Of a stretch of DNA of 64,000 nt, positions 40,084 to 62,956 are shown one piece after another (the first letter of the stretch is position 1; every line of letters begins with the position of its first letter). The translations under genes were made by a program, and so were the position numbers. This DNA is from Campylobacterales bacterium (GTDB taxonomy: Bacteria > Campylobacterota > Campylobacteria > Campylobacterales > UBA6016), in contig JBFWKW010000006.1 of assembly GCA_050252455.1 (NCBI GenBank), positions 926 to 64,925 on the forward strand, given 5' to 3'. The notes beneath the pieces are model-generated. The model was not told where the DNA came from. It was given only the letters and a program-made list of their open reading frames with translations, and did no database searches.

Positions 40084-41123
40084 TTTTTTGGGGTAAAGTG
40101 CAAAAACACCTCTTCGCCCGTCTCAATAGACTCATAAATCGCCATGATTAGCTCCAAACTTTTCCTACCGACAAGCCCGTCTACAAGAGCTTTGCCACCG
40201 TTTTCTATACAGTCCACAACATGCTCATAGTATGCTTTGTGCCCAAAGCCGTACACATCGGGAGGGTTTGTCGAAAAGTCTCTTTTGATTATTTCATCTT
40301 CTTCGGTAGCATCCTTGAACTGCCAGTGCCTTATCTCATTGACGGCGAAACCGCCTATCTCCACGCTGCCCTTTTCACCCATGATGGAGATGGAGCCTTC
40401 AAGGTCTTTTGGCCTCGTGGCGGTGGTAGCTTCTATGATGCCAAGTGCGCCGTTTTTGAATTTGAGCACCGCAACACCCGTATCCTCAACCTCTATATTT
40501 ACGAGTTGCGTCGCACTTTTAGCAAATACGCTCTCCACATCGCCCATCAACCACTCTAGTAGGTCTATGTGATGGCTTGCCTGATTGGTGAACACTCCGC
40601 CATCCATCGCCCATGTACCTCGCCACTCGTCTTGGTCATAGTATTTTTGGTCTCTGCACCACCTAACACGCACAGTTCCCATCGTCAGTTTGCCAAAGCG
40701 TCCCGCTTGCATCGCCTCTCTTAGCTTCACCACCGGGAGGTTGTAGCGGTTTTGCTTGATTACAAAGAGTCTTACGCCGTTTTCGTCGCACGCCCTTATC
40801 ATCTTGTCGGCATCTTCTAGTGTAAGTGCCATAGGCTTTTCTACTATGATATGCTTTTTGTAAGGGGCGATTGCTAGCGTATGCGATGCGTGTACGCCGC
40901 TAGGGGTCAATATACTTACCGCATCTATATCTTTTTCGATGGCGAGCATCTCATATAGATTTGTGTAGTAGTTTACGCCATATTTTTCACCAAAACTCTT
41001 GGCTTTTGCCTCGTCGCTATCGCATACACAGGCCAGTTTTGCTCCATTGATATGCCCGCCGCCGAGGAGCTCGGCATGTCTGACCGCTATTCTCCCGCAA
41101 CCGAGTAATGCAATTTTTAACAT
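40065..41123 (-). CDS. Gfo/Idh/MocA-family NAD-dependent sugar 3-dehydrogenase (long, WlbA-like type)
   Basis: 352 aa. Rossmann 'IALLGCGRIA' and 'EKPMALT' blocks. Lies in the same operon block as an aminotransferase and the WbpD-like acetyltransferase. Confidence 0.75.
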   Translation of the reverse strand: MLKIALLGCGRIAVRHAELLGGGHINGAKLACVCDSDEAKAKSFGEKYGVNYYTNLYEMLAIEKDIDAVSILTPSGVHASHTLAIAPYKKHIIVEKPMALTLEDADKMIRACDENGVRLFVIKQNRYNLPVVKLREAMQAGRFGKLTMGTVRVRWCRDQKYYDQDEWRGTWAMDGGVFTNQASHHIDLLEWLMGDVESVFAKSATQLVNIEVEDTGVAVLKFKNGALGIIEATTATRPKDLEGSISIMGEKGSVEIGGFAVNEIRHWQFKDATEEDEIIKRDFSTNPPDVYGFGHKAYYEHVVDCIENGGKALVDGLVGRKSLELIMAIYESIETGEEVFLHFTPKKCRLGH

Positions 41124-42197
41124 CTATAATATCTCTTCTATTTTGTCTATGATGGCCTTGAAGCCGCACTCGCCGCGACAAAAATACTTTCTATTGTCCA
41201 TTTTTTTGCCGATTAGTTTTTTGGATAGCTCTAGCGCCTCATCTTCGCTGTTCGTCCAGTGCATAATGCCGTTTTGGATGAGGTATTGGTCGTGATATAG
41301 CCAAATTGAGCGGGTAGAAATAGTCGGCACACCATAATACACCGACTCCAAATTCATAGTACCACCGCCGCCGATGAACAGGTCAATAAACGGATAAAAC
41401 TCTTCCGGCTTTAGCTTCTCTTTTAGCACCGTGGCAATGTCGCCAAAATCTCTCTCCAGATATTCACTCTCATATCTAGGCATTATCACGATATTCACAT
41501 CCATCTCGGCCTTGAGCCTCGGGATGATGGAGTAAAGAAGTGGCAACTTCTCGCTCACATAGTGCGCCTTGTACTCCTCTTCCCTTACCATCACGGTCAT
41601 CTTGCCGTTGTCTATGCCGTATCTTTTTCTAAAGTCGTTTTTCTCTTCGGATTTAACATCTTTCATCCACAGGCACACATCCACAAAGTCATACGGGATT
41701 ATCTGCTCGTCACTCAGCGCCAGATTGGCAAACATCGAGCGAGGCATGATGTATGGATAAAAAAACAGCTTGGAGTACGGCAGAGTGAGCCTTGTCACGG
41801 GTGTGATGTTTTTTGGACTCTCAAGGTCACCAGGATATGTCACGGCGGGAGTGTCGTAGATATTAACAACCGGGATACCGATACCGAAAGCCACGTGTAC
41901 GCTATCTACGACGGCACCGCAGATGAGCACCTTTGGCACCCCTATCTGACGGAAAATATCCAAAAACTCTTTTTGACGGAAAATTCTAGCCTGAAACTTA
42001 TCCAAAAGCGTGCTACCGCCGTATTCACCGAGTACGGTATGCTCTATGCCGTTAAGCTCCAAAATCTCTTTCGCTTCGGTGTAGTGCGGGGCGTATCTGG
42101 TGGTTACGAATACTTTTTGACCCCTAGCTTGTAGCTCCGGAATCATCTTGCTAAAAAACATCGCATATTTAGGCGTGCCGACATCAATCCAAATCAT
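41124..42197 (-). CDS. DUF354-family protein (GT-B / 2-epimerase-like fold)
   Basis: 357 aa. The N-terminus 'MIWIDVGTPKYAMFF' is typical of DUF354 (PF04007) as I recall it. No assigned function. Confidence 0.6.
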   Translation of the reverse strand: MIWIDVGTPKYAMFFSKMIPELQARGQKVFVTTRYAPHYTEAKEILELNGIEHTVLGEYGGSTLLDKFQARIFRQKEFLDIFRQIGVPKVLICGAVVDSVHVAFGIGIPVVNIYDTPAVTYPGDLESPKNITPVTRLTLPYSKLFFYPYIMPRSMFANLALSDEQIIPYDFVDVCLWMKDVKSEEKNDFRKRYGIDNGKMTVMVREEEYKAHYVSEKLPLLYSIIPRLKAEMDVNIVIMPRYESEYLERDFGDIATVLKEKLKPEEFYPFIDLFIGGGGTMNLESVYYGVPTISTRSIWLYHDQYLIQNGIMHWTNSEDEALELSKKLIGKKMDNRKYFCRGECGFKAIIDKIEEIL

Positions 42198-43894
42198 ATA
42201 AGTTTTTTAAGCCTCTCATAAAAAAATATCCTGACATCCACGGTATCCTCGGCATCTCGCCCAAGTTCTCTCATCCATGCGATATCCGGTGCCTCAAAGC
42301 CTTTTTTGTCTTTTCTAAAGGCGATATCGTCGCCGATGTATCTTGCGAGTATTTTACGCAATAAAAACTTGCTGTAGCCGTTATGGAATTTGTATCCATT
42401 TGGCAAACTATGAGCAAACTCCACGATACGGTAGTCGGTAAATGGTGTTCTATTTTCCACGCCAAAGCGCATTGCATTGCGGTCTTCAAAGCGAAGCAAC
42501 ATCGGTAAATTGAATTTTACGGTATCGAGATAAAGCGCTTTTTGCGGACTGGGGACAAACTTTTCGAGTAGCAAATCATAGTTTGGATCATAATGTGGGA
42601 AAAGCTCTCTTATTTTTGCCAACGATTTTTTGTTATCGTCAATTATGAGCGATTTTTTAGCCTCTTTTGCCAATGCACACTTCACCCCAAGCGCATATTC
42701 GCCCTCGGCCGCATCGCCGTAGAGCGATACTCTATCTCTCAAATTTTGCTTATTTCGTGTCAAAAATCTAGCCGCATGATGGTAATAACCGCCGAAAAGC
42801 TCATCGGCCCCCTGCCCCGTGACCGCTACTTTGGAGTATTTGGATAACTCTTTAAAAACGGCATACTGCACAAAAGTGGAAAAACTCCTCGTCATGTCGG
42901 ATTGAGTCAATAGAAAATCATCCATTAGCTCTTTTAGCTCGTCTATGTGCGGCGATAGCTTGACTAGATTTAACCCAAACAGCTTTGCCACGATGTCCAT
43001 ATACTTGCTCTCATCGTTTGACGGATAAGATGGAAACACGGCGCCAAAATAACGCATATTTTTGTTGTTTTTTGCAAGAAGTGCGGCTAGTAGCGAGCTG
43101 TCTATACCCCCTGAAAGCAGTATCCCTACCTCAACATCGGAGCGAAGCCTAAGTAGTAGTGCGTCGTTTAGCAGCTCCTCAAATCCGTCGCACGCCCTCT
43201 CAAACTCTTTTTCGTCAAATTTTTTATTCGGCTCTTTACACCCATCAAGCTTCCAATATCGTTTGAGCGCTAGCTTGCCGCTTTTGGCGTCAAAGACGGC
43301 GTAATGCGCACTCGGCAGATGCTTTATACCCTTGTAAATAGTTGCTTCCGAGTAGTCATTGATATTAAAAAGTATAGAGTCACACAGTGTTTGCTCGTCA
43401 AACTCTAGCGAACAAATAGCCTTGAACGCTTTGATTTCAGAGGCAAAAAACAGCTTGCCGTCAGAGAGCTTGTAGTAAAACGGCTTGTTCCCCAGCCTGT
43501 CTCTTGCCATAAAAAGTTTTTTTGTCTTTTTGTCGTAAATACAAAACGCAAAATCACCGTTGAATTTGAGAAGAGCATCTGCGCCCCATTCTCTATAAGC
43601 CTTTAGCAGCACCTCGCTATCGCTTGAAGTGCGAAAAACTACGCCCCTACTTTGAAGCTCTCCCCTAATCTCTATGTAGTTGTATATCTCGCCGTTATAC
43701 ACGAGCACCAAATCCCCGTCAAACATCGGCTGTGACGCCTCATCGCTAAGGTCTATAATACTTAAACGATTGTGGGCTAACAACATATACTCGTCCGCAA
43801 AAATCCCGCTACCGTCGGGGCCTCTATGAGTCAGTGCATTTGAGGCTTTTTGGACAAGCTCTTTGCCGATATTTCCGCCGCAGATGGAGCACAT
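42194..43894 (-). CDS. asnB: asparagine synthase family amidotransferase, paralogue 2
   Basis: 566 aa. 'MCSICGG' Ntn Cys and PP-loop 'ILLSGGIDSS'. Confidence 0.85.
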   Translation of the reverse strand: MCSICGGNIGKELVQKASNALTHRGPDGSGIFADEYMLLAHNRLSIIDLSDEASQPMFDGDLVLVYNGEIYNYIEIRGELQSRGVVFRTSSDSEVLLKAYREWGADALLKFNGDFAFCIYDKKTKKLFMARDRLGNKPFYYKLSDGKLFFASEIKAFKAICSLEFDEQTLCDSILFNINDYSEATIYKGIKHLPSAHYAVFDAKSGKLALKRYWKLDGCKEPNKKFDEKEFERACDGFEELLNDALLLRLRSDVEVGILLSGGIDSSLLAALLAKNNKNMRYFGAVFPSYPSNDESKYMDIVAKLFGLNLVKLSPHIDELKELMDDFLLTQSDMTRSFSTFVQYAVFKELSKYSKVAVTGQGADELFGGYYHHAARFLTRNKQNLRDRVSLYGDAAEGEYALGVKCALAKEAKKSLIIDDNKKSLAKIRELFPHYDPNYDLLLEKFVPSPQKALYLDTVKFNLPMLLRFEDRNAMRFGVENRTPFTDYRIVEFAHSLPNGYKFHNGYSKFLLRKILARYIGDDIAFRKDKKGFEAPDIAWMRELGRDAEDTVDVRIFFYERLKKLI

Positions 43895-44998
43895 TTACAA
43901 TATATTCGCTATGTACTCAATCTCTGCGATGCCCAAAAACCCGTTCATCGGCAAACTGAGTATCCCTTTACTCACCATCTCGGCAATAGGAAAATCTCCA
44001 TTTTTATACCCAAGATAAGAAAAACACTCTTGTAGATGGAGGGGTAGGGGGTAGTGAATAGCCGTAGGAATTCCCGCATTCTTTAGCTTTTCTTGCAAAG
44101 AATCTCTGCTTGATGCTCTTATTGAATACTGTGCCCAGACGCTATCCCTATCCTGCTTTACAGACGGCAAGATAATATCTTTGCCAGATAAAGCCTCGTT
44201 GTATGAGTGTGCAACTTTTTGTCGCCTCTTTATCTCGGCTGTATAGTCTTTTAGTTTTACTCGCAAGACAGCGGCTTGAATAGTATCGAGCCTTCCACCG
44301 ATGCCTATGTATTTGTGATGGTATCTTTTTGTCTGCCCATGAACCCTAAGGCTTTTGATTTTGCTTGCCAGCTGATCATCGTTCGTAAATACGGCACCCC
44401 CATCACCAAAGCAACCAAGCGGCTTTGCAGGGAAAAAGCTAGTGCATCCTATATCAGATAGATTGCAACTTTTTTTGTCTTTGTAGTCGGCTCCAAAGCT
44501 TTGCGCACCATCCTCTATGACAACAAGCTTATATTTGCCAGCCAAAGCATTTATCTCATCCATATCTGCACATTGCCCGTAAAGACTTACAGGAATTATT
44601 GCTTTTGTTTTTGATGTTATCGCATTTTCTATCTTTGATACATCCATATTGTATGTATGCTCATCAATATCTACAAACACCGGTTTTGCGCCCAAATGGG
44701 CTATCATCTCTGCAGTTGCGATAAAAGTAAAAGGGGTCGTGATTACCTCATCGCCGGGCTTAATATCTATAGCCATTAACGCGAGCTGTAAAGCATCCGT
44801 GCCGCTAGAGCAAGCTATACAATATTTAGCTCCACAAAAATCAGCCAACTCACTCTCAAGTAAACCTACATCTTCGCCCATAACAAAAGAGGAGTTATTG
44901 ATAACATTTGCTATAGCATTATCAATCTCGTCCTTATAAAGCTGATATTGCTTGCCCAAATTAGCAAAATCTATGTTCACGATATCACTCTTTTGCAA
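43895..44998 (-). CDS. wbpE: UDP-2-acetamido-2-deoxy-3-oxo-D-glucuronate aminotransferase-like (DegT family, set 2)
   Basis: 367 aa. Long blocks match my recollection of P. aeruginosa WbpE: 'GAKYCI.C..GTDALQ', 'AIIPVSLYGQCADMD', 'CTSFFPAKPLGCFGDGGAVFTNDD', 'RYHH...G..GRLDTIQAAVL'. Confidence 0.88.
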   Translation of the reverse strand: MQKSDIVNIDFANLGKQYQLYKDEIDNAIANVINNSSFVMGEDVGLLESELADFCGAKYCIACSSGTDALQLALMAIDIKPGDEVITTPFTFIATAEMIAHLGAKPVFVDIDEHTYNMDVSKIENAITSKTKAIIPVSLYGQCADMDEINALAGKYKLVVIEDGAQSFGADYKDKKSCNLSDIGCTSFFPAKPLGCFGDGGAVFTNDDQLASKIKSLRVHGQTKRYHHKYIGIGGRLDTIQAAVLRVKLKDYTAEIKRRQKVAHSYNEALSGKDIILPSVKQDRDSVWAQYSIRASSRDSLQEKLKNAGIPTAIHYPLPLHLQECFSYLGYKNGDFPIAEMVSKGILSLPMNGFLGIAEIEYIANIL

Positions 44999-46690: not shown

Positions 46691-47301
46691 TCTAATTCCA
46701 TAAAATTTCTAAAAAGCTGCATACCAAACTTGTGGCTTTTTTCGGGATGGAATTGCATCCCGTATATATTTTTGCTGGATATTGCAGAGGCAAATTCATA
46801 GCCGTACATAGTAGCGCCGGCTACATTTTCATCCTTATCACATACATAGTGATAGGAATGGACGAAATAAAACCTCATTTCTTCCGGCATATCTGCAAAT
46901 AACGGTATATTTTTTTTAGGGTTTACTATATTCCATCCCATGTGCGGTATTTTTAGTTTGTTAGCATTATCTCCGAAATGAAACTTTTTTACATGCCCTT
47001 TTATGAGTCCAAGTCCTGGTAGACAGCCCTCCTCGCTAGAATCGGCAAGAAGTTGCATACCGAGACAAATCCCAAGTATTACCGCTCCGCTTTCGGCTTT
47101 TTGTTTAATAACACCTGTGAGACCTGAAGAATTTAGATTCGACATGCCGGTATCAAAAGCGCCGACTCCTGGAAGTATTATTTTGCTAGCGTCAAGTATT
47201 TCAGATGGATTTGATGATACCTTGGAATCGTATCCGACTTTTTTTATCATATTTTGGATTGAGCCTATATTGCCAAGACCATAGTCGACTATTATTGTCA
47301 C
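46684..47301 (-). CDS. hisH: glutamine amidotransferase subunit homologue (WbuY/HisH2 type)
   Basis: I prefer the GTG at 47301 ('(M)TIIVDYGLGNIGS'), which overlaps the upstream TGA, over the track ATG at 47331. Catalytic 'GICLGMQ' Cys and 'HSY'/'FHPEKS' His-Glu blocks. Confidence 0.85.
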   Translation of the reverse strand: MTIIVDYGLGNIGSIQNMIKKVGYDSKVSSNPSEILDASKIILPGVGAFDTGMSNLNSSGLTGVIKQKAESGAVILGICLGMQLLADSSEEGCLPGLGLIKGHVKKFHFGDNANKLKIPHMGWNIVNPKKNIPLFADMPEEMRFYFVHSYHYVCDKDENVAGATMYGYEFASAISSKNIYGMQFHPEKSHKFGMQLFRNFMELEC

Positions 47302-47990
47302 TCGAAATATTTCCGAAGTATATTTTCGCATATATCCAAATCATTGTGGCTATCTATGTCTATGCTTTTATCTGGGCTCATAGAAAATGGAATTGTTTTG
47401 TCCGTAAAAAAACTTTTATTCTTTAGAAATAAATCCGCCTTAACTATGTATATAGCCCCATTTGGCATGTAGGCCCTAGGCAGCGCCTGTCTTCTCATAA
47501 ATGGAGTTTTGTTGTCTACAAGACCTTGTAGGTATCCATTTTTTGACAATGTAAACATCTTATATGGGCTATGCGACGGCTCATAAACACTAATCAGTGA
47601 ATCCGCATCATGAGAAATAAAGTCAGAAATAGCATTATCTATATCAGCGGAATCGCGCAACGGAGATGTTGGCTGCAGCAAAACGATACTATCAAAATTG
47701 GAACCTTTTTTTGACAAATAATCTAGCGCATGAGAAACGGTTGGTTCCGTTGGTGCCTCGTCGGTAGCAAGCTCCGTAGGTCTTTTTATGCATTCTATAC
47801 CGTACTGATTCGCAATCCTAAGTATCTCGTCGCAATCAGATGAAACACATACAGAATCAATACTATTGGAATTCAATGCCGCTTCTATAGTCCATGCAAT
47901 AAGCGGCTTTCCGTGTAGCTGTGATATGTTTTTATTTACAATCCCCTTGGAGCCGCCTCTTGCCGGAATAACAGCTAGAAAGTTTTTCAT
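47298..47990 (-). CDS. neuA: acylneuraminate (nonulosonate) cytidylyltransferase family
   Basis: 230 aa. 'AVIPARGGSKGI.NKN' and 'LQPTSPLR' motifs of CMP-NulO synthetases. Neu vs Leg vs Pse specificity is not resolvable by eye. Confidence 0.85.
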   Translation of the reverse strand: MKNFLAVIPARGGSKGIVNKNISQLHGKPLIAWTIEAALNSNSIDSVCVSSDCDEILRIANQYGIECIKRPTELATDEAPTEPTVSHALDYLSKKGSNFDSIVLLQPTSPLRDSADIDNAISDFISHDADSLISVYEPSHSPYKMFTLSKNGYLQGLVDNKTPFMRRQALPRAYMPNGAIYIVKADLFLKNKSFFTDKTIPFSMSPDKSIDIDSHNDLDICENILRKYFE

Positions 47991-49355
47991 TTATACCGTC
48001 AGGTCGGAACTTAAGCCCGACATACTTCTCAGGTCGTCATACTTAATATCATCGCTCTCAATGGCATCTTTAAAAAATAGTTGGGCCAGCATCTCTTTGC
48101 GCTCCGCTCCGAACTCAGAGAGCGAAAATAACTCCCCGCTAATGCTATATTTTTGGAGAAACTCACCTACTTCATTTGGAACTGTAACCGTGTTTGCCCA
48201 TCTAATATTCACAAGATAAAAGCCATTTTCTTTTCTAAATCTAAGTCTTTTTGGAGCAGTAAATTTTGCATTGTTCTCTATAGCTCTATAAATCATAGGG
48301 TCATGCACTATCTTATACGGACGCACAAAGCTATCCTTGCCTGTCATAAAATTGTCTTGCCCGTTTAAATCACCGCTAAACGCATGCGCAGACATTCGAC
48401 ATCCTGTTTGGCAAATATCTATATAGTCACATCCCATACATCCCGGATATCTATAGCTCATATCATGCCAAGCATGCATCTTTTCATAACACTTATAAAT
48501 ACCGTCTTCAAATATATTTCCGTAAGCCTCTTCTTGATGTACGCATGCATGCGTATTGCCGTCAGCATTAAGACTTAAAATGTGTCCTGATTGAGCGGGG
48601 CATCCGCGACCGACAAAATCCCTGTATTTTTCAAGATCGCTGAGCAGGCACAGCGGATAGCTAACAAGCGTACCAATCATGATGCCTGTTTTCTCTTTCG
48701 CTGCAATAAGTTGGTCTACCGTCGAAAGAGCATCCTCTCTCGTTACTTTGAACTCTGATGCATTGGGATTGCATTCATTAATTGATGGAACCACCCTTGT
48801 GCCAAAAATTTTCTGGCAACCAAGAGAGTGTGCAAATAAAGCGGTATCATAAACATGCATTTTATTTCTTTCCGACACAATCATGTTCACACTAACCCTC
48901 ATATCATTTTTGATACAAGATTCTATACCGCTTACTATTTTATCAAAAGCACCGTCTTGATGTACCATATAATCGTTTGTTGCCCTATCATATGAATTTA
49001 GACTGGTAAGAATATGATCCAACCCGGCATCCCTGAGCCTCCTAATTTTATCATCCGTAGCAAGCATTAGATTGCTGTTGCAACTTATTGATATATTGTT
49101 GTCTACCAATTTTTTAAAGCCATACTCAAGAAGATCAAATCTAGCGAATGGTTCACCGCCTGTTAATACAACATGAAAAACACCGGCATCAACAAATTGC
49201 TCAATAAGCAAATCCATTTTTTCTTTTGTAAGGGAGCTAGACTTAGAACTATCCTCTCTCCAAAAGTTATAGCAATGCCTGCATTTAACATTGCAAACAT
49301 CGGTAATCTCCAAATTAACGACAGTTGGAGCACTAAATATTTTTTTTTCTCTCAC
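47991..49355 (-). CDS. radical SAM / SPASM-domain protein
   Basis: 'NLEITDVCNVKCRHC' CxxxCxxC. The C-terminal 'GCMGCDYIDICQTGC' matches the SPASM CX2CX5CX3C exactly. A GTG at 49355 with an AGAAGG SD 6-7 nt upstream avoids the 85-nt overlap implied by the track ATG at 49451. Confidence 0.8.
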   Translation of the reverse strand: MREKKIFSAPTVVNLEITDVCNVKCRHCYNFWREDSSKSSSLTKEKMDLLIEQFVDAGVFHVVLTGGEPFARFDLLEYGFKKLVDNNISISCNSNLMLATDDKIRRLRDAGLDHILTSLNSYDRATNDYMVHQDGAFDKIVSGIESCIKNDMRVSVNMIVSERNKMHVYDTALFAHSLGCQKIFGTRVVPSINECNPNASEFKVTREDALSTVDQLIAAKEKTGIMIGTLVSYPLCLLSDLEKYRDFVGRGCPAQSGHILSLNADGNTHACVHQEEAYGNIFEDGIYKCYEKMHAWHDMSYRYPGCMGCDYIDICQTGCRMSAHAFSGDLNGQDNFMTGKDSFVRPYKIVHDPMIYRAIENNAKFTAPKRLRFRKENGFYLVNIRWANTVTVPNEVGEFLQKYSISGELFSLSEFGAERKEMLAQLFFKDAIESDDIKYDDLRSMSGLSSDLTV

Positions 49356-49366
49356 GGTAAACCTTC

Positions 49367-50578
49367 TTAAACTATTTGATTTCTCAGTTTCCACATATCG
49401 CCATTTTTTTCCCACAAGTGCGGCGACCTGGCCTTGTTTATAATCTCCCAAAATTTATCTTCAGTAATATCCATATAGTTTAATATTTCACCAAGATATT
49501 TTGTAGGCAATTCGGAATCATATTTTTTAACCAAATAAACCCCTTCTTCTCTTGTTATTTTTCCGTTTCTAATCTCTTGTGCGGCATCATACGTGGCTCT
49601 ACCTATACCAAACTTTATGTATGTTGTATAGTAATGTAAAGGGTCTATTTTGTCGTCGATACTGCTATACTTGGAAAAACTACCCTCTGTCCTCTCCGTA
49701 TTTGACTGAAAGCCTGTATGCTCCGCCGCATAATAATAATTTTCTTGAGGATCCCAATTTAAGTAGTAGCTAATGTGATGAACCTCCGTTCCCACCTTTT
49801 TTAGTTTTTCACCGCTAACCGGCAAATAAGGGTTGAGGTCACTCAATCTTATATTGTGTTCTTCAGATATCTCTCTGGCAGACACTCCGCCCAAAAATAG
49901 GTTATCGATATTTGGTTCTTCTTCATAAAATTTTGGCAACATAGTAGGCCTGAACGCGCCATCCAGGTCATCACCATATTCTGCGGCATGCTCACCATAA
50001 AATACAAGCGGGATTTCATAAAGGGCAGAAAACCTAGCGGCAAGCATTTTTTGCCCTATTATAAACGGCTGAAAAGGGTGGCATAAATTTTCAAAAGCAA
50101 GCTTTGTGAGCAGTCTATGTACTTTTCCATTTGGGGTCACGAGTATATTGTCAAAACCAGAATCTATCCAACTATGAAAATTCCTAAAGCCTATATCGGT
50201 ATACATATGCGGAGACCAAGTCACAGTCAGCGGGTTCATGTTGTATTTAAACTTCAAAATATGAGACACGAAGGCACTATCTTTCCCGCCGCTACCGGGT
50301 ACTATGCAGTCGTAAGAGCCATCGCTTTTTCTATATCTATTGCACAACTCAACAAGTTCTTTTTCTCTCTCTTCCCAATTCATTTTGTTCCGCTTTATCT
50401 CTGCATACTTACAAGCACTACATACACCGTCTTCATCAAAAAAAATAGTTGGCTTTTTGCCGTTTGCCGTATTTTTAAACTCAACGACGGAGCCCGGTCT
50501 TTGATTTGACATAACGCATTTTTTGCAAAATTTTACCTCGCTGGGTAGTCCATAATAAGCGGTTAAATTATTTGTCAT
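49367..50578 (-). CDS. N-acetyl sugar amidotransferase (PP-loop; PseA/flagellin-modification type, TIGR03573-like)
   Basis: 403 aa. N-terminal Zn-ribbon 'CKKCVMSNQRP...CSAC' and PP-loop 'IVPGSGGKDS'. Confidence 0.8.
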   Translation of the reverse strand: MTNNLTAYYGLPSEVKFCKKCVMSNQRPGSVVEFKNTANGKKPTIFFDEDGVCSACKYAEIKRNKMNWEEREKELVELCNRYRKSDGSYDCIVPGSGGKDSAFVSHILKFKYNMNPLTVTWSPHMYTDIGFRNFHSWIDSGFDNILVTPNGKVHRLLTKLAFENLCHPFQPFIIGQKMLAARFSALYEIPLVFYGEHAAEYGDDLDGAFRPTMLPKFYEEEPNIDNLFLGGVSAREISEEHNIRLSDLNPYLPVSGEKLKKVGTEVHHISYYLNWDPQENYYYAAEHTGFQSNTERTEGSFSKYSSIDDKIDPLHYYTTYIKFGIGRATYDAAQEIRNGKITREEGVYLVKKYDSELPTKYLGEILNYMDITEDKFWEIINKARSPHLWEKNGDMWKLRNQIV

Positions 50579-51230
50579 TGCGATTCCTTGTACATATATC
50601 TATAAAGTTTTTGATTATCATGAGCCCATACTTGCCGCTCTTTTCTGGGTGGAACTGGCACCCGTAAATATTATCTTTTTTCACGGCCGAACAGAATGAA
50701 ATCCCAGCATAATTAGTCACCGACAAGATGCTCCTTTTGTCATTCGGAACAGCCGCATAGCTGTGTACAAAATACATATCTTCTTCGTTATTTAAATCAT
50801 TAAATATAGTGTCGCCCCAATCTGCATAAGCAGTCTTCTTGATTCCATTCCAGCCTATATGCGGCAGTTTGCCGTAAAAGTCGACAGGAAAACTATCCAG
50901 CCTGCAAACCCTGCCGTTAATCAACCCGAGTCCATTGGACATGCCAAACTCTTCACTCTCGTCAAAAAGAAGTTGCATACCTAGACATATGCCAAGTATG
51001 GGTCTACCACTGTGTGCAAACTCTATAATCGGCTTTACAAGATTTAAATCTAGCAAATTTTGCATACCATGAGCGAATGCTCCAACCCCGGGGACCACAA
51101 GACCGTCTGCTGTTTCTATCTCATGAGCGTTGCGCGTTAATATCGGAATAGTGCCATTTTTTTCAAACGCACCGTTAATGCTGCGTATATTGCCGACTCC
51201 GTAGTCCAAAACGGCAATTTTGCAACTCAT
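50568..51230 (-). CDS. hisH: glutamine amidotransferase subunit homologue (HisH-like), set 1
   Basis: 220 aa. 'IAVLDYGVGNIRSI', 'GICLGMQ', 'VHSY' and 'FHPEKS' blocks. Confidence 0.88.
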   Translation of the reverse strand: MSCKIAVLDYGVGNIRSINGAFEKNGTIPILTRNAHEIETADGLVVPGVGAFAHGMQNLLDLNLVKPIIEFAHSGRPILGICLGMQLLFDESEEFGMSNGLGLINGRVCRLDSFPVDFYGKLPHIGWNGIKKTAYADWGDTIFNDLNNEEDMYFVHSYAAVPNDKRSILSVTNYAGISFCSAVKKDNIYGCQFHPEKSGKYGLMIIKNFIDICTRNRNDK

Positions 51231-51988
51231 ATCCTTACCCCAACACCAAGCGCTCCAATTCCTGACTTAATCACACCGATTGATTCTATTTCATAATGCA
51301 AGACAGAAGCTAACGCTACGGCGTTTATATTTTTTTGCACAGACAATAACTTCTCTATATCAGACAGGCTACCGGCACCCCCACTAGCTATGACCGGTAT
51401 AGACACGGAGTCACATACGCTAGAGTACAATTCCAAATCAAACCCCTTTTTTGTCCCTTCCATATCGACCGATGTGAGCATAATCTCGCCAGCGCCAAGA
51501 TGCTCTACTTTTTTGGCCCACTCCAGCACATCCAAACCGGTAGGCTCTCTGCCGTTATCTATATATGCTTCCCATTTATCTTTGGATATTTTCTTTGCGA
51601 CTATAGACGAAACTATACACTGGGAGCCGAACACGCGAGATGCCTCCTCTATAAAAGCAGGGTTTTTTACGGCTTGCGTATTTATGGCTACCTTATCGGC
51701 ACCAATGCTCAATGCAAGTTTGATATCTGCTATGCTTCTAATCCCGCCGCCTACGGTGATTGGTACAAATATGTTTTTGCATGCCTTTTCTATAATATCG
51801 CCCAAACTATTTCTATCATAATAGGCCGCCACGGCATCCATAAAAATTATCTCATCTATACCTTGCTCGTAATACCTTAGAGCCATTTCATTTGGATTGC
51901 CGACCTTTCGCAGACCCTCCAAATGTATTCCTTTTATGACATATTCATTTTTAACATCTATTCTTGCAATAACCCTAAATTTGCTCAT
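51227..51988 (-). CDS. hisF: cyclase subunit homologue (HisF-like), set 1
   Basis: 253 aa. 'RVIARIDVK', 'DEIIFMD', 'GGGIRS' and 'GAGEIMLTSVDMEGT' blocks. Confidence 0.88.
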   Translation of the reverse strand: MSKFRVIARIDVKNEYVIKGIHLEGLRKVGNPNEMALRYYEQGIDEIIFMDAVAAYYDRNSLGDIIEKACKNIFVPITVGGGIRSIADIKLALSIGADKVAINTQAVKNPAFIEEASRVFGSQCIVSSIVAKKISKDKWEAYIDNGREPTGLDVLEWAKKVEHLGAGEIMLTSVDMEGTKKGFDLELYSSVCDSVSIPVIASGGAGSLSDIEKLLSVQKNINAVALASVLHYEIESIGVIKSGIGALGVGVRI

Positions 51989-53129
51989 TTGACCCTAGTT
52001 CCATAAACTGCTTTTGATGTTTTATATTCCAAAGATTATCAGTGTTAAGTATTTCAAAAAACATTTTATCGCTATTGCCGTCACCAAAACGCCCTGACAT
52101 ATTTGCAGCGCTACATCCATGTCCGCTATATTTTATAGCTAGCGATATTGAATTTAGAATATCGATCTTCTCATATGATGAATGAAATATAGAGGGAAGT
52201 TTCGCCCTGTTCATTTGTCTGGTTCCTATATCGACCGCAGGAACATCATAATAATGAGCCTCTCTAATACCTGCGCTAGAGTTTCCTATGATGAAATCAG
52301 CATACATCAGAAGAGATAGGAAATATTCAAATCTAATTGACGAGAATATTCTAAATGAAGAATTACCTTCAAGCCTCCTGTATTCCTCCAGTATCTCCAT
52401 GCTGCCAAGGTCATTATTGGGATATATCACTATATATTTTTTTTTACTTTCCAGCAATGCATCTACAAAATTTTTTACATGCTCCCTGATCATTCTATAT
52501 TCCGTAGTAACCGGATGAAACATAGCTATTGCGTAGCTATCAAACTCAAGATCGTAATATCTTTTTACATCATCTATATTGGTCAGCTTCTCCGGATTCA
52601 TTAAGTCTAAGTCTGGCGAGCCTATAACAAATATAGAATTTTGATTCTCACCAAGCTGAATAAGCCTTCTTCTTGCCTCTTCATTGGCCACAAAGTGCAC
52701 ATGCGACAGCTTGCTTACGGCATGCCTAATCAGCTCATCCACAGTACCTGATATTTCTCCGCCCTCTATATGGGCAACAAGCACATTATTAAGGCTTCCG
52801 ACGATGGCGCCGGCCATAGCCTCAACCCTGTCGCCATGCACGACTATAAGGTCTGGTTCTATCTCGCTTATGTATTTTGAAAAACCATCTATCGTCTTTG
52901 CCAATGTTCTATCCATATGCTCAACGATATCGTGGTTTATGAATTGGTATATATTCTTAAAGCCGGACTTGTATATTTCGTCAACAGTTTTGCCATATTT
53001 TGAATTTATATGCATACCCGTGGCAAATATATGCACATCAAAACAGCTGGAAGACTGGGTAATCCTAATCAACGATTTCAGTTTTCCAAAATCAGCCCTA
53101 GTGCCGGTTAAAAATACTATTTTCTTCAT
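51975..53129 (-). CDS. neuC: UDP-N-acetylglucosamine 2-epimerase (hydrolysing), NeuC/LegG type
   Basis: 384 aa. 'FLTGTRADFGKL', 'VHGDR.E' and 'AHIEGGE.SGT.DE..RH..SKLSH.HF' blocks of TIGR03568-type enzymes. Confidence 0.88.
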   Translation of the reverse strand: MKKIVFLTGTRADFGKLKSLIRITQSSSCFDVHIFATGMHINSKYGKTVDEIYKSGFKNIYQFINHDIVEHMDRTLAKTIDGFSKYISEIEPDLIVVHGDRVEAMAGAIVGSLNNVLVAHIEGGEISGTVDELIRHAVSKLSHVHFVANEEARRRLIQLGENQNSIFVIGSPDLDLMNPEKLTNIDDVKRYYDLEFDSYAIAMFHPVTTEYRMIREHVKNFVDALLESKKKYIVIYPNNDLGSMEILEEYRRLEGNSSFRIFSSIRFEYFLSLLMYADFIIGNSSAGIREAHYYDVPAVDIGTRQMNRAKLPSIFHSSYEKIDILNSISLAIKYSGHGCSAANMSGRFGDGNSDKMFFEILNTDNLWNIKHQKQFMELGSNEQI

Positions 53130-53791
53130 TTGACTATATATGCTATAGCATTTGAATATCTAAGTTTTTTTATCTCTATATTATTTCCAAAATAATCATC
53201 TATTGCCTTATTTGCACCGGCAAATGCGCCGTAATCGTCAAAAACAACAACGCCGCCTTTTACTACTTTGTCAAACAAACACTCTATTGACATTTTTGTA
53301 GCCTCATATATATCAACATCGATATGAAGCAATGATATCTTTAGTTGTGGATTTGCGGCTATATATTCAGGGAGTGTTTTTGCTATATCGCCCTTAATAA
53401 TTTCAATATTTTGATTTAGTTTTTGCGTATCAAGTATACAGTTTAACTCTTCTATAGAAATTCCTACGCCACCATTTGTTTCCTCTATGAACTTAAGCCT
53501 GCTTTCTTTGTCGTTTTCAAAATCAGTATCCGGAAACTCTCCAAACATATCAAATGCAATTATCTTTCTACTATATGTATTTTCAAGTAAATCTCTAAAT
53601 TTAATCCATCTAAAAAGCGAGTTTCCCTTGAAAACACCAAGCTCAACTATCTCACCCCTTAATTCTGAGGTCATCTCAAAGAACTTTAAGTGGCTTACAA
53701 ATTTACTAAACCTATTAGTTCCAGCGGTGGCATAAAAGCCGTTTTCATATTCAAATTTTTTATCAATATTGTAAAGCATATCTAACCTCAA
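53126..53791 (-). CDS. TylF/MycF-like class I SAM-dependent methyltransferase
   Basis: 221 aa. 'IVELGVFKGNS' SAM motif and the 'LLHIDVDIYEAT'...'VVFDDY' metal/acid motif typical of macrocin-O-methyltransferase-like proteins. Confidence 0.7.
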   Translation of the reverse strand: MRLDMLYNIDKKFEYENGFYATAGTNRFSKFVSHLKFFEMTSELRGEIVELGVFKGNSLFRWIKFRDLLENTYSRKIIAFDMFGEFPDTDFENDKESRLKFIEETNGGVGISIEELNCILDTQKLNQNIEIIKGDIAKTLPEYIAANPQLKISLLHIDVDIYEATKMSIECLFDKVVKGGVVVFDDYGAFAGANKAIDDYFGNNIEIKKLRYSNAIAYIVK

Positions 53792-55176
53792 GTTTGTCTA
53801 AAACCTCGGAACGAGGAATTTCTATCAACATACAAATCACTTAACTGTCGTAGCATATTTTCGTGCTGTCTTTTAAGATAATTGTCCAAAAGCATTTTAT
53901 TGGCCTCCATTAAAGCCGCATAAAATTCATCATCGCTCATATCCGTAAAATTAACGGATAGTAAATCAGAGTTAGTATGCTTATGTTCGTAAAAATCTTC
54001 TATATCTTTTAACTTCCCGTCCGCAATAGCTTTATAATACAGCGGCGAGCCTGGATATGGCGTGACAGGCCTAATTGTTCTCATCTGTGCGCCGTCGTCA
54101 TATTTAAGAAGAAATTCTACCCCCTTCATTAGGGTTTCTTTTGTTTCGCCTATATTCCCGAATATAATATTAAACCCCGGACTAATTCCTTCCGCCAAAG
54201 TAGCCTCAATTCCCTTTGTTATTTGTTTGGTGTTAAGAGCTTTATTCATATTTTTTAACGCCACGTCATCATAAGACTCTATCCCGTAATTAATAAAAAC
54301 ACATCCTGCTTTTTTCATCAGCTTCAATACTTCCGGCGAAGCATAATTTAATCTACCGTTGCAAAACCATTTGATATTCAATCTTGCTTTGATTATATCT
54401 TCGCACAACTCAATCGTTCTTTGCTTGGAAGACATAAGAAGCTCATCGTTAAACACTATATAGGTAATACCGTAGTTTTTAATTAAAAATTTAATTTCTT
54501 CAATAATAGACTCATTGCTCCTACCCCTAAAGCCCTTGTCCATTCTATAACAAAAGTTGCATGTAAATGTACAACCTCTGCCAGACAATATTGGCATAAC
54601 AAAATCTGTTTTGGAGCATTTAGGCATTCTAATAAGCCTATAGTGATGAACATTGAATTTTTCATATGCAGGCATCTGAATAGAATCCACATCTTCTATC
54701 AGCGGTCTTGCCTCATTAATATGAACTTGCCCGTTTTTTAAATATGCCATCCCTTTGACATTTTCAAAACCAAGTCTATTATCAAGATTGTGGAGCAGTT
54801 CAATTATTGTTCTCTCTCCTTCTCCCATAACAACGGCATCTGCGTTGAGTTTTTTCAAGAAATAACCCGGGTCTGGGCTTGGACCAAAACCGCCTATTAT
54901 AAAAAATGGCCTTTGTCTTGATTCGTTAATTGCATTTGATATTTTAATGGCTTTTCTATATTCGTAGTAACCGCCTATAAAACTTAGACCCACGACATCG
55001 TAATGCTCATTATTAAGAAGCTCCGTGAGATGTTCTTCCGGGTAGTGATGGATATCCTGTTCATATATATCAACCTCATGTCCGCTCGAGATCAATACCG
55101 CCGTTATATATGCCATCCCTTGCGGAAACCATTGCACCAATGACTCGTTATCATATGTTATTAATAAAATTCTCAC
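53788..55176 (-). CDS. cobalamin(B12)-binding-domain radical SAM protein
   Basis: 462 aa. N-terminal Rossmann-like B12-binding region and 'SGRGCTFTCNFC' CxxxCxxC. Confidence 0.82.
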   Translation of the reverse strand: MRILLITYDNESLVQWFPQGMAYITAVLISSGHEVDIYEQDIHHYPEEHLTELLNNEHYDVVGLSFIGGYYEYRKAIKISNAINESRQRPFFIIGGFGPSPDPGYFLKKLNADAVVMGEGERTIIELLHNLDNRLGFENVKGMAYLKNGQVHINEARPLIEDVDSIQMPAYEKFNVHHYRLIRMPKCSKTDFVMPILSGRGCTFTCNFCYRMDKGFRGRSNESIIEEIKFLIKNYGITYIVFNDELLMSSKQRTIELCEDIIKARLNIKWFCNGRLNYASPEVLKLMKKAGCVFINYGIESYDDVALKNMNKALNTKQITKGIEATLAEGISPGFNIIFGNIGETKETLMKGVEFLLKYDDGAQMRTIRPVTPYPGSPLYYKAIADGKLKDIEDFYEHKHTNSDLLSVNFTDMSDDEFYAALMEANKMLLDNYLKRQHENMLRQLSDLYVDRNSSFRGFRQT

Positions 55177-55177
55177 A

Positions 55178-56239
55178 TTACTTCACTATATTGAAATTTT
55201 CTACATCCGCCATTTTAACATGTTGATCTGCCGCTATGTCAATCAAGGCTCTTTTGCCATGCAAATCAAAATAAAACTCTGCGGGTATCTCACCAACACC
55301 TGGTCTTTTTACCCAAGTATTGCTTTCATTAAAAGTCTCCCCTTTTGATATATTACGAGTTGTAACCACCGTAGCAAAAGCAAAGTCCATTGTTACCTGC
55401 TCTTCCGGAAGCAGAGCCTTGGCGCCACCTCTCATTTTTGCAAGCTCTATACTACCGCTTATCAACTCTTTTAGTGCCACAGGATCCATGGAATTGACTA
55501 TATCAGGACCAACTCTATCCATTCTATCTGTAAAATGCCTTTCTAGTATGGACGCCCCAAGTGCAACAGCCCCAAAACATGCAAGATTTGATGTTGTGTG
55601 GTCTGATAAGCCTATAACGGCTTTCGGAAATACCTCTTGCAGCTGAACCATCGCCCCAAGTCTTACCAAATGCGACGGTGTGGGATATAGATTTGTGGTA
55701 TGAAGCAGTGCATACTGTATATTATATTTTTCCATTATTGCAACCGCTTTTGAAACAGAGTCAATAGTATTCATGCCGGTGCTAACTATCATCGGTTTTC
55801 CAAATCTCGCTATGTGCTCTATTAGCGGATAGTTATTGCACTCTCCTGAGCCTATTTTGTATGCCAATACACCCATTTTCTCTAGCCTATCGGCTGCGGC
55901 ACGAGAAAAAGGAGTACTAATAAATACCATTCCGCGAGACTCAACATGCTGTTTTAGCGCAAGCTCGTCTTTTTCGTCAAGAGCACATTTTTGCATTATT
56001 TCATATATAGATATACTAGCATTACCGGGGATTACTTGTTTTGCGGCAGCACTCATTTCGTCTTCCACTACATGTGTCTGATGCTTGATAAACTCGGCTC
56101 CACTTTTCCATGCTGCGTCAACCATTTCTATTGCCGTCTCAAGGGAGCCGTTATGGTTTATGCCCAGTTCTGCAATAACAAGAGGGTCAAAGTCATATCC
56201 TATTTTTCTGCCGGCTATTTCTATAAACTTTTCAGACAA
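55178..56239 (-). CDS. neuB: N-acetylneuraminate synthase family (NeuB/LegI type) with C-terminal SAF domain
   Basis: 353 aa. '[11 protein letters not shown]', 'KHQTH' and 'GLSDHT' blocks, plus a C-terminal SAF/antifreeze-like domain. Confidence 0.9.
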
Positions 56240-61462: not shown

Positions 61463-62956
61463 TTAAGAAAAACCTAAAAATACAAGCGCATTGTCCATAT
61501 TGCCTGTTTTTTTCACATCATAACTTTTAATTGTGTTTGTTGCATATTCTGATATTAAAGATATGGCGATATCTTCGGTTTCGGCATACTCCACAAAACC
61601 TTTTTCAATATATTCTTCAAAATTATCAAAACCTGCTCTATCCAAAATAATTGACGGCTTATTAAATATTTTTGCCTCTAAAATAACGCTAGAGGTCATT
61701 GTTATATGGATATCCACCTTGTCCAATATACTATAAAGCGGAACAGCCGAGGCTATTTTTATATTACAAAAGTTGCCAAGCCCCTCTCTTTGTATTGCAG
61801 CCTCAACCTCACTTCCCAAATGAAGTCTACATGGGTGCATCCTGATAAAGTAAAATAAATCATCATTTGCCGCAATGCTGCTTTTTACAAGCGAAATCAA
61901 CCTCTCCGTCTCATTTTCTATCAAGCCGTTATACGTATACAACAAGTTGAAACTTTTACTATCAACAATTTGCTCTATTGGACAACTCATATCTAATTGA
62001 AATTCTTGAAATTTTTCAATATACGGATGCCCGCCAACAACACTGCTATGCGAATGGTTTGCCCATTCATTTACTATTCTGGCTTCTGCATCACTCCAGC
62101 ACCAAAAGTAGTTAGGCAGCATCTCATAGCCACATTCTGGCAAGTTTATCCATTTGCTATATGCCTGATGGTATCCGCCGTAAACACCGTGCTGTATATC
62201 AACAGTTGCAATACCTAGTCGCCTACATGCGATGTTCAAAGCCAGTCCTTCATTGCCATAATAGCTTACAATAAATACGGTCTTAGGCTTGGTTTTAATA
62301 AGTATTTTTTCAAATGTTTTAGCAAAACAAAGAACATAATTAACCTGCCTATTTATATCATCTAGTGAATAGAAGCTATCTGCTATCCCAATTTTTTCAA
62401 AATATTCAACGATGAGGTCAAAATCAGGCAAGCAACTATCTTTCCTGTTAAAACAACCGACCACTAGACTTTTTAATATAGCGATATCAAGTCTTGGCTG
62501 TATCCAAAAGGACTTTGTGAATCTAGGATACAAAAACATATTTAACGGAGATATTAATAGCGTGCTATGGGCATTTGAGTTTAATTTCTCTATTATTGGG
62601 TCACAAAACTTATCATAATATTTGCCATTACGCATTTCCAATGATACGCCGTCACTATAAAACAAGGCATCTATTTGGACAAGTCTACTATTATTTTCTG
62701 CGTCAAAAAAGCACGCTTTTGCATACTTGATGTAAGTTTTAATGCTTGCCGCGATGTGAAGAAAAATTCTTTGCAGATTTGTTTTTTTTATTTTTTGCTT
62801 ATTTATTTTTAATACATTGCTACTAATGAGATTTGTTATGAAGTGAATCCTAATAAGCGGCCACACTCGCGCACCGCCAACGCACCATGTATTTACCCTG
62901 AAATTGGACTCTACGTTGGCTAGAATTTTAAAAATATTCTTTAAATCCATTTTCAA
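61463..62956 (-). CDS. hypothetical soluble protein, possible GT-B-like transferase
   Basis: 497 aa, very AT-rich. No family recognised with confidence. It contains 'IRMHP' (an HP dipeptide like the HP motif of bacterial sialyltransferases) and 'TSSVILEA'. The functional call is speculative. Confidence 0.4.
   Translation of the reverse strand: MKMDLKNIFKILANVESNFRVNTWCVGGARVWPLIRIHFITNLISSNVLKINKQKIKKTNLQRIFLHIAASIKTYIKYAKACFFDAENNSRLVQIDALFYSDGVSLEMRNGKYYDKFCDPIIEKLNSNAHSTLLISPLNMFLYPRFTKSFWIQPRLDIAILKSLVVGCFNRKDSCLPDFDLIVEYFEKIGIADSFYSLDDINRQVNYVLCFAKTFEKILIKTKPKTVFIVSYYGNEGLALNIACRRLGIATVDIQHGVYGGYHQAYSKWINLPECGYEMLPNYFWCWSDAEARIVNEWANHSHSSVVGGHPYIEKFQEFQLDMSCPIEQIVDSKSFNLLYTYNGLIENETERLISLVKSSIAANDDLFYFIRMHPCRLHLGSEVEAAIQREGLGNFCNIKIASAVPLYSILDKVDIHITMTSSVILEAKIFNKPSIILDRAGFDNFEEYIEKGFVEYAETEDIAISLISEYATNTIKSYDVKKTGNMDNALVFLGFS

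Follow-up and report, generated by a model that had tools for sequence, protein, structure and literature searches.

A B12-binding-domain radical SAM enzyme and a TylF-type methyltransferase associated with nonulosonic-acid genes in a Campylobacterales bacterium

The neuB to neuC interval

A 64,000-nucleotide stretch of a metagenome-assembled genome of an uncultured Campylobacterales bacterium (assembly GCA_050252455.1, contig JBFWKW010000006.1 of 65,240 bp, nearly all of which is covered; the whole stretch is called the window below) carries on its minus strand genes for the synthesis of a nonulosonic acid. Between the neuB- and neuC-type genes lie a gene for a radical S-adenosylmethionine (SAM) enzyme with a B12-binding domain (B12-rSAM) and a gene for a TylF-type methyltransferase. 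In the direction of transcription, the order is as follows.

55178-56239, minus strand: NeuB, sialic-acid synthase of the N-acetylneuraminic acid (Neu5Ac) type (PF03102, 223 bits, plus SAF domain; TIGR03569, 370 bits)
53788-55176, minus strand: B12-binding-domain radical SAM enzyme, 462 aa (PF02310, 56 bits, and PF04055, 74 bits)
53126-53779, minus strand (reading frame extends to TTG 53791): TylF/MycF/NovP-type SAM- and metal-dependent O-methyltransferase, 217 aa (PF05711, 76 bits)
51975-53129, minus strand: NeuC, hydrolysing UDP-sugar 2-epimerase (TIGR03568, 407 bits for a cut-off of 236 bits)

These reading frames, their domains and the four-gene order had been proposed in a first-pass annotation made from the sequence alone, and the Pfam and NCBIfam profile matches bear them out. 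In the NCBI annotation, the two internal genes are labeled just "radical SAM protein" and "TylF/MycF/NovP-related O-methyltransferase". The junctions are tight. A 1-nt gap separates neuB from the B12-rSAM gene, and the TylF-type gene and neuC overlap by four nucleotides (ATGA), both as previously annotated. A further 4-nt overlap had been assigned to the junction of the B12-rSAM and TylF-type genes. This is true only for the TTG start at 53791. Because the NCBI model and the lengths of all the 217-219-aa homologs point to ATG 53779, this codon is taken as the start, which leaves an 8-nt spacer containing GAGG. The GTG start of the B12-rSAM is backed by residues M1, L4 and L5, invariant in the family alignment.

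The four genes belong to a series of 26 minus-strand genes, from 63933 down to 35968, joined by overlaps or short gaps and forming a single-strand glycan operon of about 28 kb. A recent insertion of the B12-rSAM gene was considered on grounds of composition and rejected, since its GC content at third codon positions (GC3, 0.35) agrees with that of its neighbours. At a larger scale, GC3 shifts sharply at about 42200-43900: genes 35968-42197 have values of 0.52-0.58, like the adjacent moaA, and genes 43895-63933 have values of 0.27-0.45. From this shift, the nonulosonic-acid part of the operon looks horizontally acquired.

Which nonulosonic acid is made? The window NeuB is 60.5% identical to Neisseria meningitidis NeuB (1xuu; 342 columns, 453 bits), a proven Neu5Ac synthase, and scores lower against SpsE (161 bits) and the pseudaminic acid synthase PseI (136 bits). 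Moreover, no LegB-type dehydratase or PtmE-type nucleotidyltransferase gene is present in the 64-kb window. The set of genes expected for legionaminic acid (dehydratase, LegC, acetyltransferase, guanylyltransferase plus NeuB and NeuC homologs) is thus incomplete in the window; it is found in most other loci encoding a B12-rSAM ortholog. Because of the NeuB identity and the absence of LegB- and PtmE-type genes, the core most likely produces a Neu5Ac-type sialic acid rather than legionaminic or pseudaminic acid. On the other side, typing of NeuC is ambiguous, with PDB matches to a LegG-type epimerase (194 bits) and to the epimerase domain of human GNE (180 bits), and a Campylobacterales pgl pathway elsewhere in the genome could supply the di-N-acetylated (diNAc) bacillosamine precursor.

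Distribution of the two enzymes and their gene neighbourhoods

The TylF-type protein has 1110 homologs in the protein search, of which the best 120 are 65-75% identical and 217-219 aa long. Gene context was studied in 40 loci, 37 from metagenomes and 3 from genomes, whose ortholog has 60% identity or more. The gene immediately upstream is NeuB in 30 of 33 cases and the one immediately downstream is NeuC in 27 of 28; both flanks are kept in 22 of the 24 loci where they could be read together. Thus, the TylF-type gene is not wedged between the neu genes, as had been supposed, but is a fixed part of a widespread neuB-TylF-neuC cassette, and only the B12-rSAM is an addition. The window NeuB and NeuC are 63-72% and 54-67% identical, respectively, to those of the cassettes. 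A LegB-type dehydratase occurs in 5, and a PtmE-type gene in 2, of 26 cassette loci of at least 12 kb.

Downstream of neuC, the window operon continues with the five genes below, then with a second HisH/HisF pair and other amino-sugar genes.

51227-51988, minus strand: WbuZ/HisF-like cyclase subunit of an acetamidino-forming system (TIGR03572, 267 bits)
50568-51230, minus strand: HisH-like glutaminase subunit of the same type of system (TIGR01855, 215 bits)
49367-50578, minus strand: WbuX-family N-acetyl sugar amidotransferase (TIGR03573, 362 bits for a cut-off of 203 bits)
47991-49451, minus strand: SPASM-type radical SAM enzyme, the second of the locus (PF04055, 85 bits; CxxxCxxC and a C-terminal Cys-rich SPASM motif)
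47298-47990, minus strand: CMP-nonulosonic acid synthetase (PF02348, 92 bits; PseF model, 158 bits, below its cut-off), named acylneuraminate cytidylyltransferase family protein by NCBI

In the alphaproteobacterium Paremcibacter congregatus, the order NeuB-TylF-NeuC-HisF-HisH-WbuX-CMP-synthetase corresponds to the window module minus both radical SAM genes. In Paremcibacter L084 and L090, the WbuZ/HisF-like gene (64-69% identity) occupies the same position and the HisH-like and WbuX genes are also syntenic; in L090, a Maf glycosyltransferase and a flagellin gene follow the seven-gene cassette. The NeuB-TylF-NeuC trio is also found in Winogradskyella (Bacteroidota) and in a metagenome-assembled genome of the Helicobacteraceae. 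In the latter (L085), a PhyH dioxygenase and a second TylF-like gene stand between NeuB and the orthologous TylF gene, and in L119 an Acyl_transf_3 O-acyltransferase stands at this place. Among the sampled TylF loci, the window is the only one with a B12-rSAM there. Because the exceptions carry other tailoring genes, the NeuB/TylF junction is a recurrent insertion point for tailoring enzymes. The Helicobacteraceae locus (L085, 548-10867) is exceptionally rich in genes for nonulosonic-acid tailoring: three TylF-like methyltransferases, the PhyH dioxygenase, a formyltransferase, a deacetylase and MptE-like (Maf-related) proteins are encoded around NeuB, NeuC and the CMP-synthetase.

The B12-rSAM has a different distribution. 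More than 4400 matches were obtained in the protein search; the best 120 are 66-79% identical, almost all of them 462 aa long. For the study of loci, contigs from one genome per species yielded 240 stretches encoding a relative, and the best 80 were used (61-76% identity, at least 80 species). Hosts belong to Campylobacterota, Desulfobacterota, Nitrospirota, Omnitrophota, Planctomycetota (including anammox lineages), Bacillota, Actinomycetota, Spirochaetota, Chloroflexota, Bacteroidota and Cyanobacteriota, as well as to Methanolobus and Promethearchaeota. Of the 69 loci that reach 8 kb or more, 59 have NeuB, NeuC or a CMP-synthetase within 10 kb of the B12-rSAM. The neighbours were counted in the 49 loci having at least 5 kb on each side.

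NeuB: 40 of 49 loci
CMP-synthetase: 38
DegT aminotransferase: 35
CBS-nucleotidyltransferase (PtmE-like): 32
NeuC: 32
LegB-like dehydratase: 25
LegH-like acetyltransferase: 24
WbuX, HisH or HisF: 13-15

This gene set is that of legionaminic acid synthesis. Directly beside the B12-rSAM, the CMP-synthetase is encountered most often (13 times upstream, 6 times downstream). In Campylobacterota, the ortholog directly follows Maf transferases, which transfer nonulosonic acids to flagellin, close to flagellin and FliD genes. It stands between NeuB and NeuC in two loci (L049 and L073), the arrangement for which the first-pass annotation had suggested searching other genomes, and directly beside NeuB or NeuC in six (L007, L012, L053, L057, L059 and L082). 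L007, from Marinarcus, lacks NeuC, and an association with the pseudaminic type was considered there; it was rejected since the LegC-family aminotransferase and the NeuB_NnaB-type synthase of this locus are of the legionaminic type. A DUF354 protein is found beside the nonulosonic-acid genes both in L007 (16017-17075) and in the window (41124-42197, minus strand), with 39% identity, and it might replace NeuC in the Marinarcus locus.

A TylF homolog occurs in 1 of 83 B12-rSAM loci (L063), and this one is weak (30% identity). Two more distant loci pair a TylF homolog with a B12-rSAM ortholog, L143 and L132, where the order is NeuB-NeuC-SPASM-TylF-deacetylase-formyltransferase-CMP-synthetase-B12-rSAM-flippase. 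The two genes therefore have separate histories. The B12-rSAM moves independently and is strongly conserved as an accessory of nonulosonic-acid clusters, for the most part of the legionaminic type. For each of the two genes, linkage to nonulosonic-acid genes recurs in dozens of genomes that are not related. Both linkages are far beyond chance, and the proposal that the two enzymes serve this pathway is strongly supported as one of dedicated tailoring.

Limits of the B12-rSAM family were also sought. A discrete boundary was rejected, as a search of representatives returned graded relatives from 63% down to 30% identity with no gap. The family grades into a large radiation of B12-rSAMs of about 450 aa at 30-50% identity, several of them being encoded in these same glycan loci. 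Many of the loci retrieved have such paralogs; in one from Thermodesulfovibrionales (L003, 5103-17078), four B12-rSAM genes are scattered among glycosyltransferases, one being the ortholog and three having 26-28% identity. In the closest relative from a named genome (GCA_002327465.1; L001, 12905-21389), the ortholog adjoins a flagellar island with a split transketolase, two SPASM radical SAM enzymes, an HldE-like kinase/nucleotidyltransferase, an epimerase and a 641-aa B12-rSAM, perhaps the genes of a route to a further higher-carbon sugar. Finally, two families of proteins of about 630 aa having no Pfam match are encoded immediately downstream of the B12-rSAM in 4 and 3 loci (for instance L034, 2353-4242, and L019, 2301-4196); possible roles are transfer or polymerisation of the modified sugar.

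Chemistry of the two enzymes and proposed pathway

The TylF-type protein exceeds the PF05711 cut-off of 23 bits, and among solved structures it matches CalS11 best (E 8e-16), a TDP-rhamnose 3'-O-methyltransferase. It has an Asp triad, HID...FDD (spacing 27/28), aligned with FDLD...FDE of CalS11, which we take to be the metal-binding triad D, D+27, D+28 of MycF. The NCBIfam equivalog search returned no match for it. The Pfam score, the CalS11 match and the triad make O-methylation the natural reading, and the enzyme likely O-methylates the nonulosonic sugar.

The B12-rSAM has the architecture of class B enzymes. Its cluster motif, C202-x3-C206-x2-C209, is invariant in 30 homologs, in line with the PF04055 score (cut-off 29.5 bits), and the fold of the core resembles those of many solved radical SAM enzymes. 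The B12-binding domain (PF02310, cut-off 32.1 bits; residues 14-127) is an N-terminal Rossmann-type domain fused to the core. An AlphaFold2 (AF2) model with a predicted local distance difference test (pLDDT) score of 86 agrees with this build. The loop following the first strand (beta1-alpha1) is invariant in the same 30 homologs (Y8, D9, N10, S12, W16, F17, P18 and Q19), which fits a cofactor site. Moreover, the N-terminal domain is included in the matches to the BchE, HpnJ and PhpK models and to the OxsB, TokK and CysS profiles. Foldseek returns whole-length matches to TsrM, AprD4, MgmA, OxsB, CysS and TokK at 16-18% identity. Because the methylases among these (TsrM, MgmA, CysS and TokK) and the non-methylases (AprD4 and OxsB) score alike, the fold does not discriminate between the two chemistries.

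With these class B features, C-methylation by the B12-rSAM is plausible and the likeliest single chemistry, and we give a probability of about one half to a CMP-sialic-acid pathway with several tailoring steps in which the B12-rSAM is a carbon methylase. Several observations weigh against carbon methylation. The best NCBIfam scores are those of BchE (146 bits), the ladderane enzyme (140 bits) and HpnJ (129 bits), none of which is known to methylate. PhpK comes next, and against the families of characterised class B methylases the protein stays far below the cut-offs: 114 bits for 600 (PhpK), 114 for 575 (Sden_1168), 83 for 282 (C-methyltransferase of ribosomally synthesised and post-translationally modified peptides), 75 for 360 (MJ_0865), 75 for 650 (HpnR), 60 for 700 (KedN5) and 21 for 500 (TsrM). 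Indeed, it is below every curated cut-off in the equivalog search. The best solved sequence match is AprD4 (E about 5e-20 to 6e-20), which also gives the highest TM-score (0.73-0.75). AprD4, a radical SAM enzyme that dehydrates a 1,2-diol of an aminosugar, is not known to use cobalamin, so that a similar fold may lack this cofactor. No cobalamin riboswitch, nor any other Rfam family, is found in the 64-kb window. To our knowledge, no nonulosonic acid has a proven C-methyl group, and we know of no cultured host of the B12-rSAM family with a solved glycan. Carbon methylation is therefore proposed conditionally, since sequence and fold do not separate the enzyme from non-methylating relatives such as AprD4. 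As regards the original suggestion that the sugar is C- and/or O-methylated, the O-methylation is likely and the C-methylation just plausible.

The AprD4 and BchE-type matches would also suit a tailoring of the nonulosonic acid by non-methylating radical chemistry, that is AprD4-like dehydration or deoxygenation, oxidation, epimerisation or rearrangement. The lengths of AprD4 and the B12-rSAM are similar, and the C7-C9 triol of Neu5Ac would be open to attack by a diol dehydratase. However, legionaminic-type clusters are the usual home of the family, and legionaminic acid has hydroxyls at C4 and C8 only, thus no vicinal diol, which argues against AprD4-type chemistry as the family function. In addition, the AprD4 sequence match is limited to the core (residues 161-408; NF033070, 87 bits for a cut-off of 500), the N-terminal domain aligns with the cobalamin-binding members and not with AprD4, and neither an AprD3-like reductase nor another partner is co-conserved among the B12-rSAM loci. 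Non-methylating chemistry is the main rival, less likely than carbon methylation.

One or both enzymes might instead act on another sugar of the glycan, such as a 6-deoxyhexose, their position among neu genes being incidental. Some TylF homologs are indeed named "dTDP-6-deoxy-L-hexose 3-O-methyltransferase", and the operon also encodes other amino-sugar pathways (GFO, DegT, an acetyltransferase and three AsnB-type amidotransferases). This is improbable in view of the direct NeuB and NeuC flanks of the TylF gene in several phyla, of its frequent occurrence in a stand-alone four-gene cassette with the CMP-synthetase, and of the way the B12-rSAM tracks nonulosonic-acid genes across phyla; the window moreover showed no rml genes of the rhamnose type. 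Least probable of all is an action of the B12-rSAM after the TylF-type enzyme, extending its O-methyl group to O-ethyl or O-isopropyl in the way that CysS treats a methoxy group in cystobactamid synthesis. The genes do adjoin each other, with probable translational coupling across the 8-nt spacer, CysS is matched both by sequence and by fold, and both kinds of gene are present again in L132 and L143. However, the conserved function of the family cannot depend on a TylF-made methoxy group, because 82 of the 83 B12-rSAM loci have no TylF homolog.

In the preferred pathway, with carbon methylation by the B12-rSAM, NeuC would convert UDP-N-acetylglucosamine (UDP-GlcNAc) to N-acetylmannosamine (ManNAc), NeuB would condense the latter with phosphoenolpyruvate to give Neu5Ac, and the CMP-synthetase would activate the product; these roles rest on profile assignments and, for the Neu5Ac type, on homology to N. 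meningitidis NeuB. The WbuX/HisH/HisF proteins would turn an N-acetyl into an acetamidino group, as proposed at the family level. The TylF-type enzyme, judged by its family membership, would O-methylate a hydroxyl of the sugar or of its nucleotide-activated form. The B12-rSAM would abstract a hydrogen by means of a 5'-deoxyadenosyl radical and transfer a methyl group from methylcobalamin to an unactivated carbon. Since the family serves both neuraminic- and legionaminic-type clusters, whose sugars are both D-glycero-D-galacto, the target would be a shared position: C4-H, C8-H or the methyl of the 5-N-acyl group. The substrate is probably the CMP-activated sugar, because the CMP-synthetase is the commonest immediate neighbour. 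At the window locus, the additions to the conserved cassette would be the B12-rSAM and the SPASM radical SAM enzyme. The best solved match of the latter is the cytosylglucuronate decarboxylase BlsE (E 5e-12), and its true start is probably downstream of the first start codon of the reading frame. In L128-L132, TylF homologs directly follow orthologs of this enzyme (49-58% identity), a hint that the two form a functional pair.

Upstream of neuB, the operon encodes glycosyltransferases and one reading frame weakly matching the Tannerella nonulosonic-acid transferase family.

61463-62956, minus strand: candidate nonulosonic-acid transferase, weak assignment (C-terminal part of NF046086, E 2.7e-10, 40 bits for a cut-off of 200)

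NF046086 (the BFO_1060 family) holds the Tannerella forsythia transferases for pseudaminic and legionaminic acid derivatives, proven by knock-out (PMC5420450). Weak homologs of the window reading frame (22-27% identity) lie near the B12-rSAM in L038, L041 and L054. Over its whole length (35968-63933, minus strand), the operon encodes three amidotransferases of the WbuX family, three of the AsnB type and two HisH/HisF pairs, so that its glycan probably bears many amidino and amide groups. Outside the operon, another B12-binding radical SAM enzyme, having a DUF4080 C-terminal domain and unrelated to the family studied here, is encoded at 26019-27470 (plus strand). A NifB-like protein (radical SAM and Nitro_FeMo-Co domains) at 16060-17469 (minus strand) hints at nitrogenase cofactor synthesis in the source organism.

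Nonulosonic acids cap flagella, S-layers, capsules and lipopolysaccharides, and shape phage and immune recognition as well as surface charge. A full-text literature search found no paper linking radical SAM or cobalamin, or TylF, to nonulosonic, legionaminic or pseudaminic acids; matches to "radical" in papers on Legionella, Leptospira and anaerobic methanotrophic archaea (ANME) were irrelevant or concerned other genes. Here known kinds of enzymes are applied to sialic-acid-like sugars, and neither a curated family nor a searchable paper covers the B12-rSAM family, a tight family that tracks nonulosonic-acid clusters in bacteria and archaea. Two studies by mass spectrometry report O-methylated CMP-nonulosonic acids in several organisms and, for Magnetospirillum gryphiswaldense and Methanococcus, "higher-carbon" (C10) ulosonic acids that lack an explanation (PMC8157484; bioRxiv 10.64898/2026.04.20.719630). 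Methylation had been presented as going beyond the known decorations; O-methylation is less unprecedented given the O-methylated CMP-sugars already reported (bioRxiv 10.64898/2026.04.20.719630). Moreover, glycans of Kuenenia give nonulosonic-acid fragments at m/z 261, 275 and 289 (bioRxiv 10.1101/2020.12.03.409086). In a search started from a Brocadiaceae ortholog, no Kuenenia-named protein was found among the best 120, which gives no support to a link with the +14 Da nonulosonic-acid variants of Kuenenia.

The B12-rSAM family is a candidate for the enzyme forming C10 ulosonic acids, and a C-methylating enzyme, if real, would explain the C10 and +14 Da data. In its boldest form, the B12-rSAM would C-methylate the backbone or side chain of CMP-neuraminic or CMP-legionaminic acids to give the C10 CMP-ulosonic acids of Magnetospirillum and Methanococcus, a surface decoration widespread in more than 100 anaerobic bacterial and archaeal species; so stated, the idea is speculative and on balance unlikely. 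If a carbon is methylated, a new class of sialic-acid-like sugars would be defined, and a gene would be at hand for the C10 marker ions and the +14 Da series. The neuB-TylF-neuC cassette, for its part, predicts bacterial O-methyl sialic acids and names cultured hosts in which to look for them, Paremcibacter congregatus and Winogradskyella psychrotolerans. Geomonas silvestris Red330 and Desulfoscipio geothermicus DSM 3669 are cultured hosts of the B12-rSAM. Both enzymes would be useful for the chemoenzymatic synthesis of modified CMP-sialic acids.

Comparison with known systems

GenK and GenD1, from gentamicin biosynthesis, methylate carbinol carbons of aminosugars, and Fom3, from fosfomycin biosynthesis, uses a CMP-activated substrate. 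These enzymes have the same two-domain build as the B12-rSAM, a B12-binding domain and a radical SAM core, and the CMP-activated substrate of Fom3 parallels the frequent adjacency of the CMP-synthetase. However, the sequence does not place the B12-rSAM in this class, as the score against the related PhpK model illustrates. It would act on an alpha-keto acid sugar of nine carbons, and its family is spread over many phyla, archaea included, with no tie to antibiotic clusters. AprD4, from apramycin biosynthesis, is the nearest solved protein and acts on an aminosugar. It differs by the core-only alignment, the need for a diol that legionaminic acid does not offer and the AprD3 partner. As at the window locus, an O-methyltransferase gene adjoins the cobalamin radical SAM gene of CysS (cystobactamid). 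Nevertheless, CysS is about 17% identical, is longer (645 aa) and modifies an aromatic methoxy group on a carrier-bound substrate, and most members of the B12-rSAM family have no O-methyltransferase nearby.

The TylF-type enzyme shares Pfam membership and the spacing of the Asp triad with CalS11, NovP and MycF, and CalS11 methylates a nucleotide-activated sugar. These enzymes act on 6-deoxyhexoses of secondary metabolites, whereas the 217-219-aa subfamily is locked between neuB and neuC. A parallel in organisation is found in Campylobacter jejuni, where the tailoring genes PtmG/PtmH (Cj1324-Cj1326) lie among core nonulosonic-acid genes, as at the window locus. Through changes made on the nucleotide sugar (bioRxiv 10.64898/2026.04.20.719630), they lead to acetamidino and N-methylacetimidoyl legionaminic acid. 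The window shares with C. jejuni amidotransferase genes of the WbuX/HisH/HisF type. PtmG and PtmH are, however, conventional enzymes making N-linked changes, whereas the window locus combines a B12-rSAM and a TylF-type methyltransferase, neither of which has a counterpart in that system.

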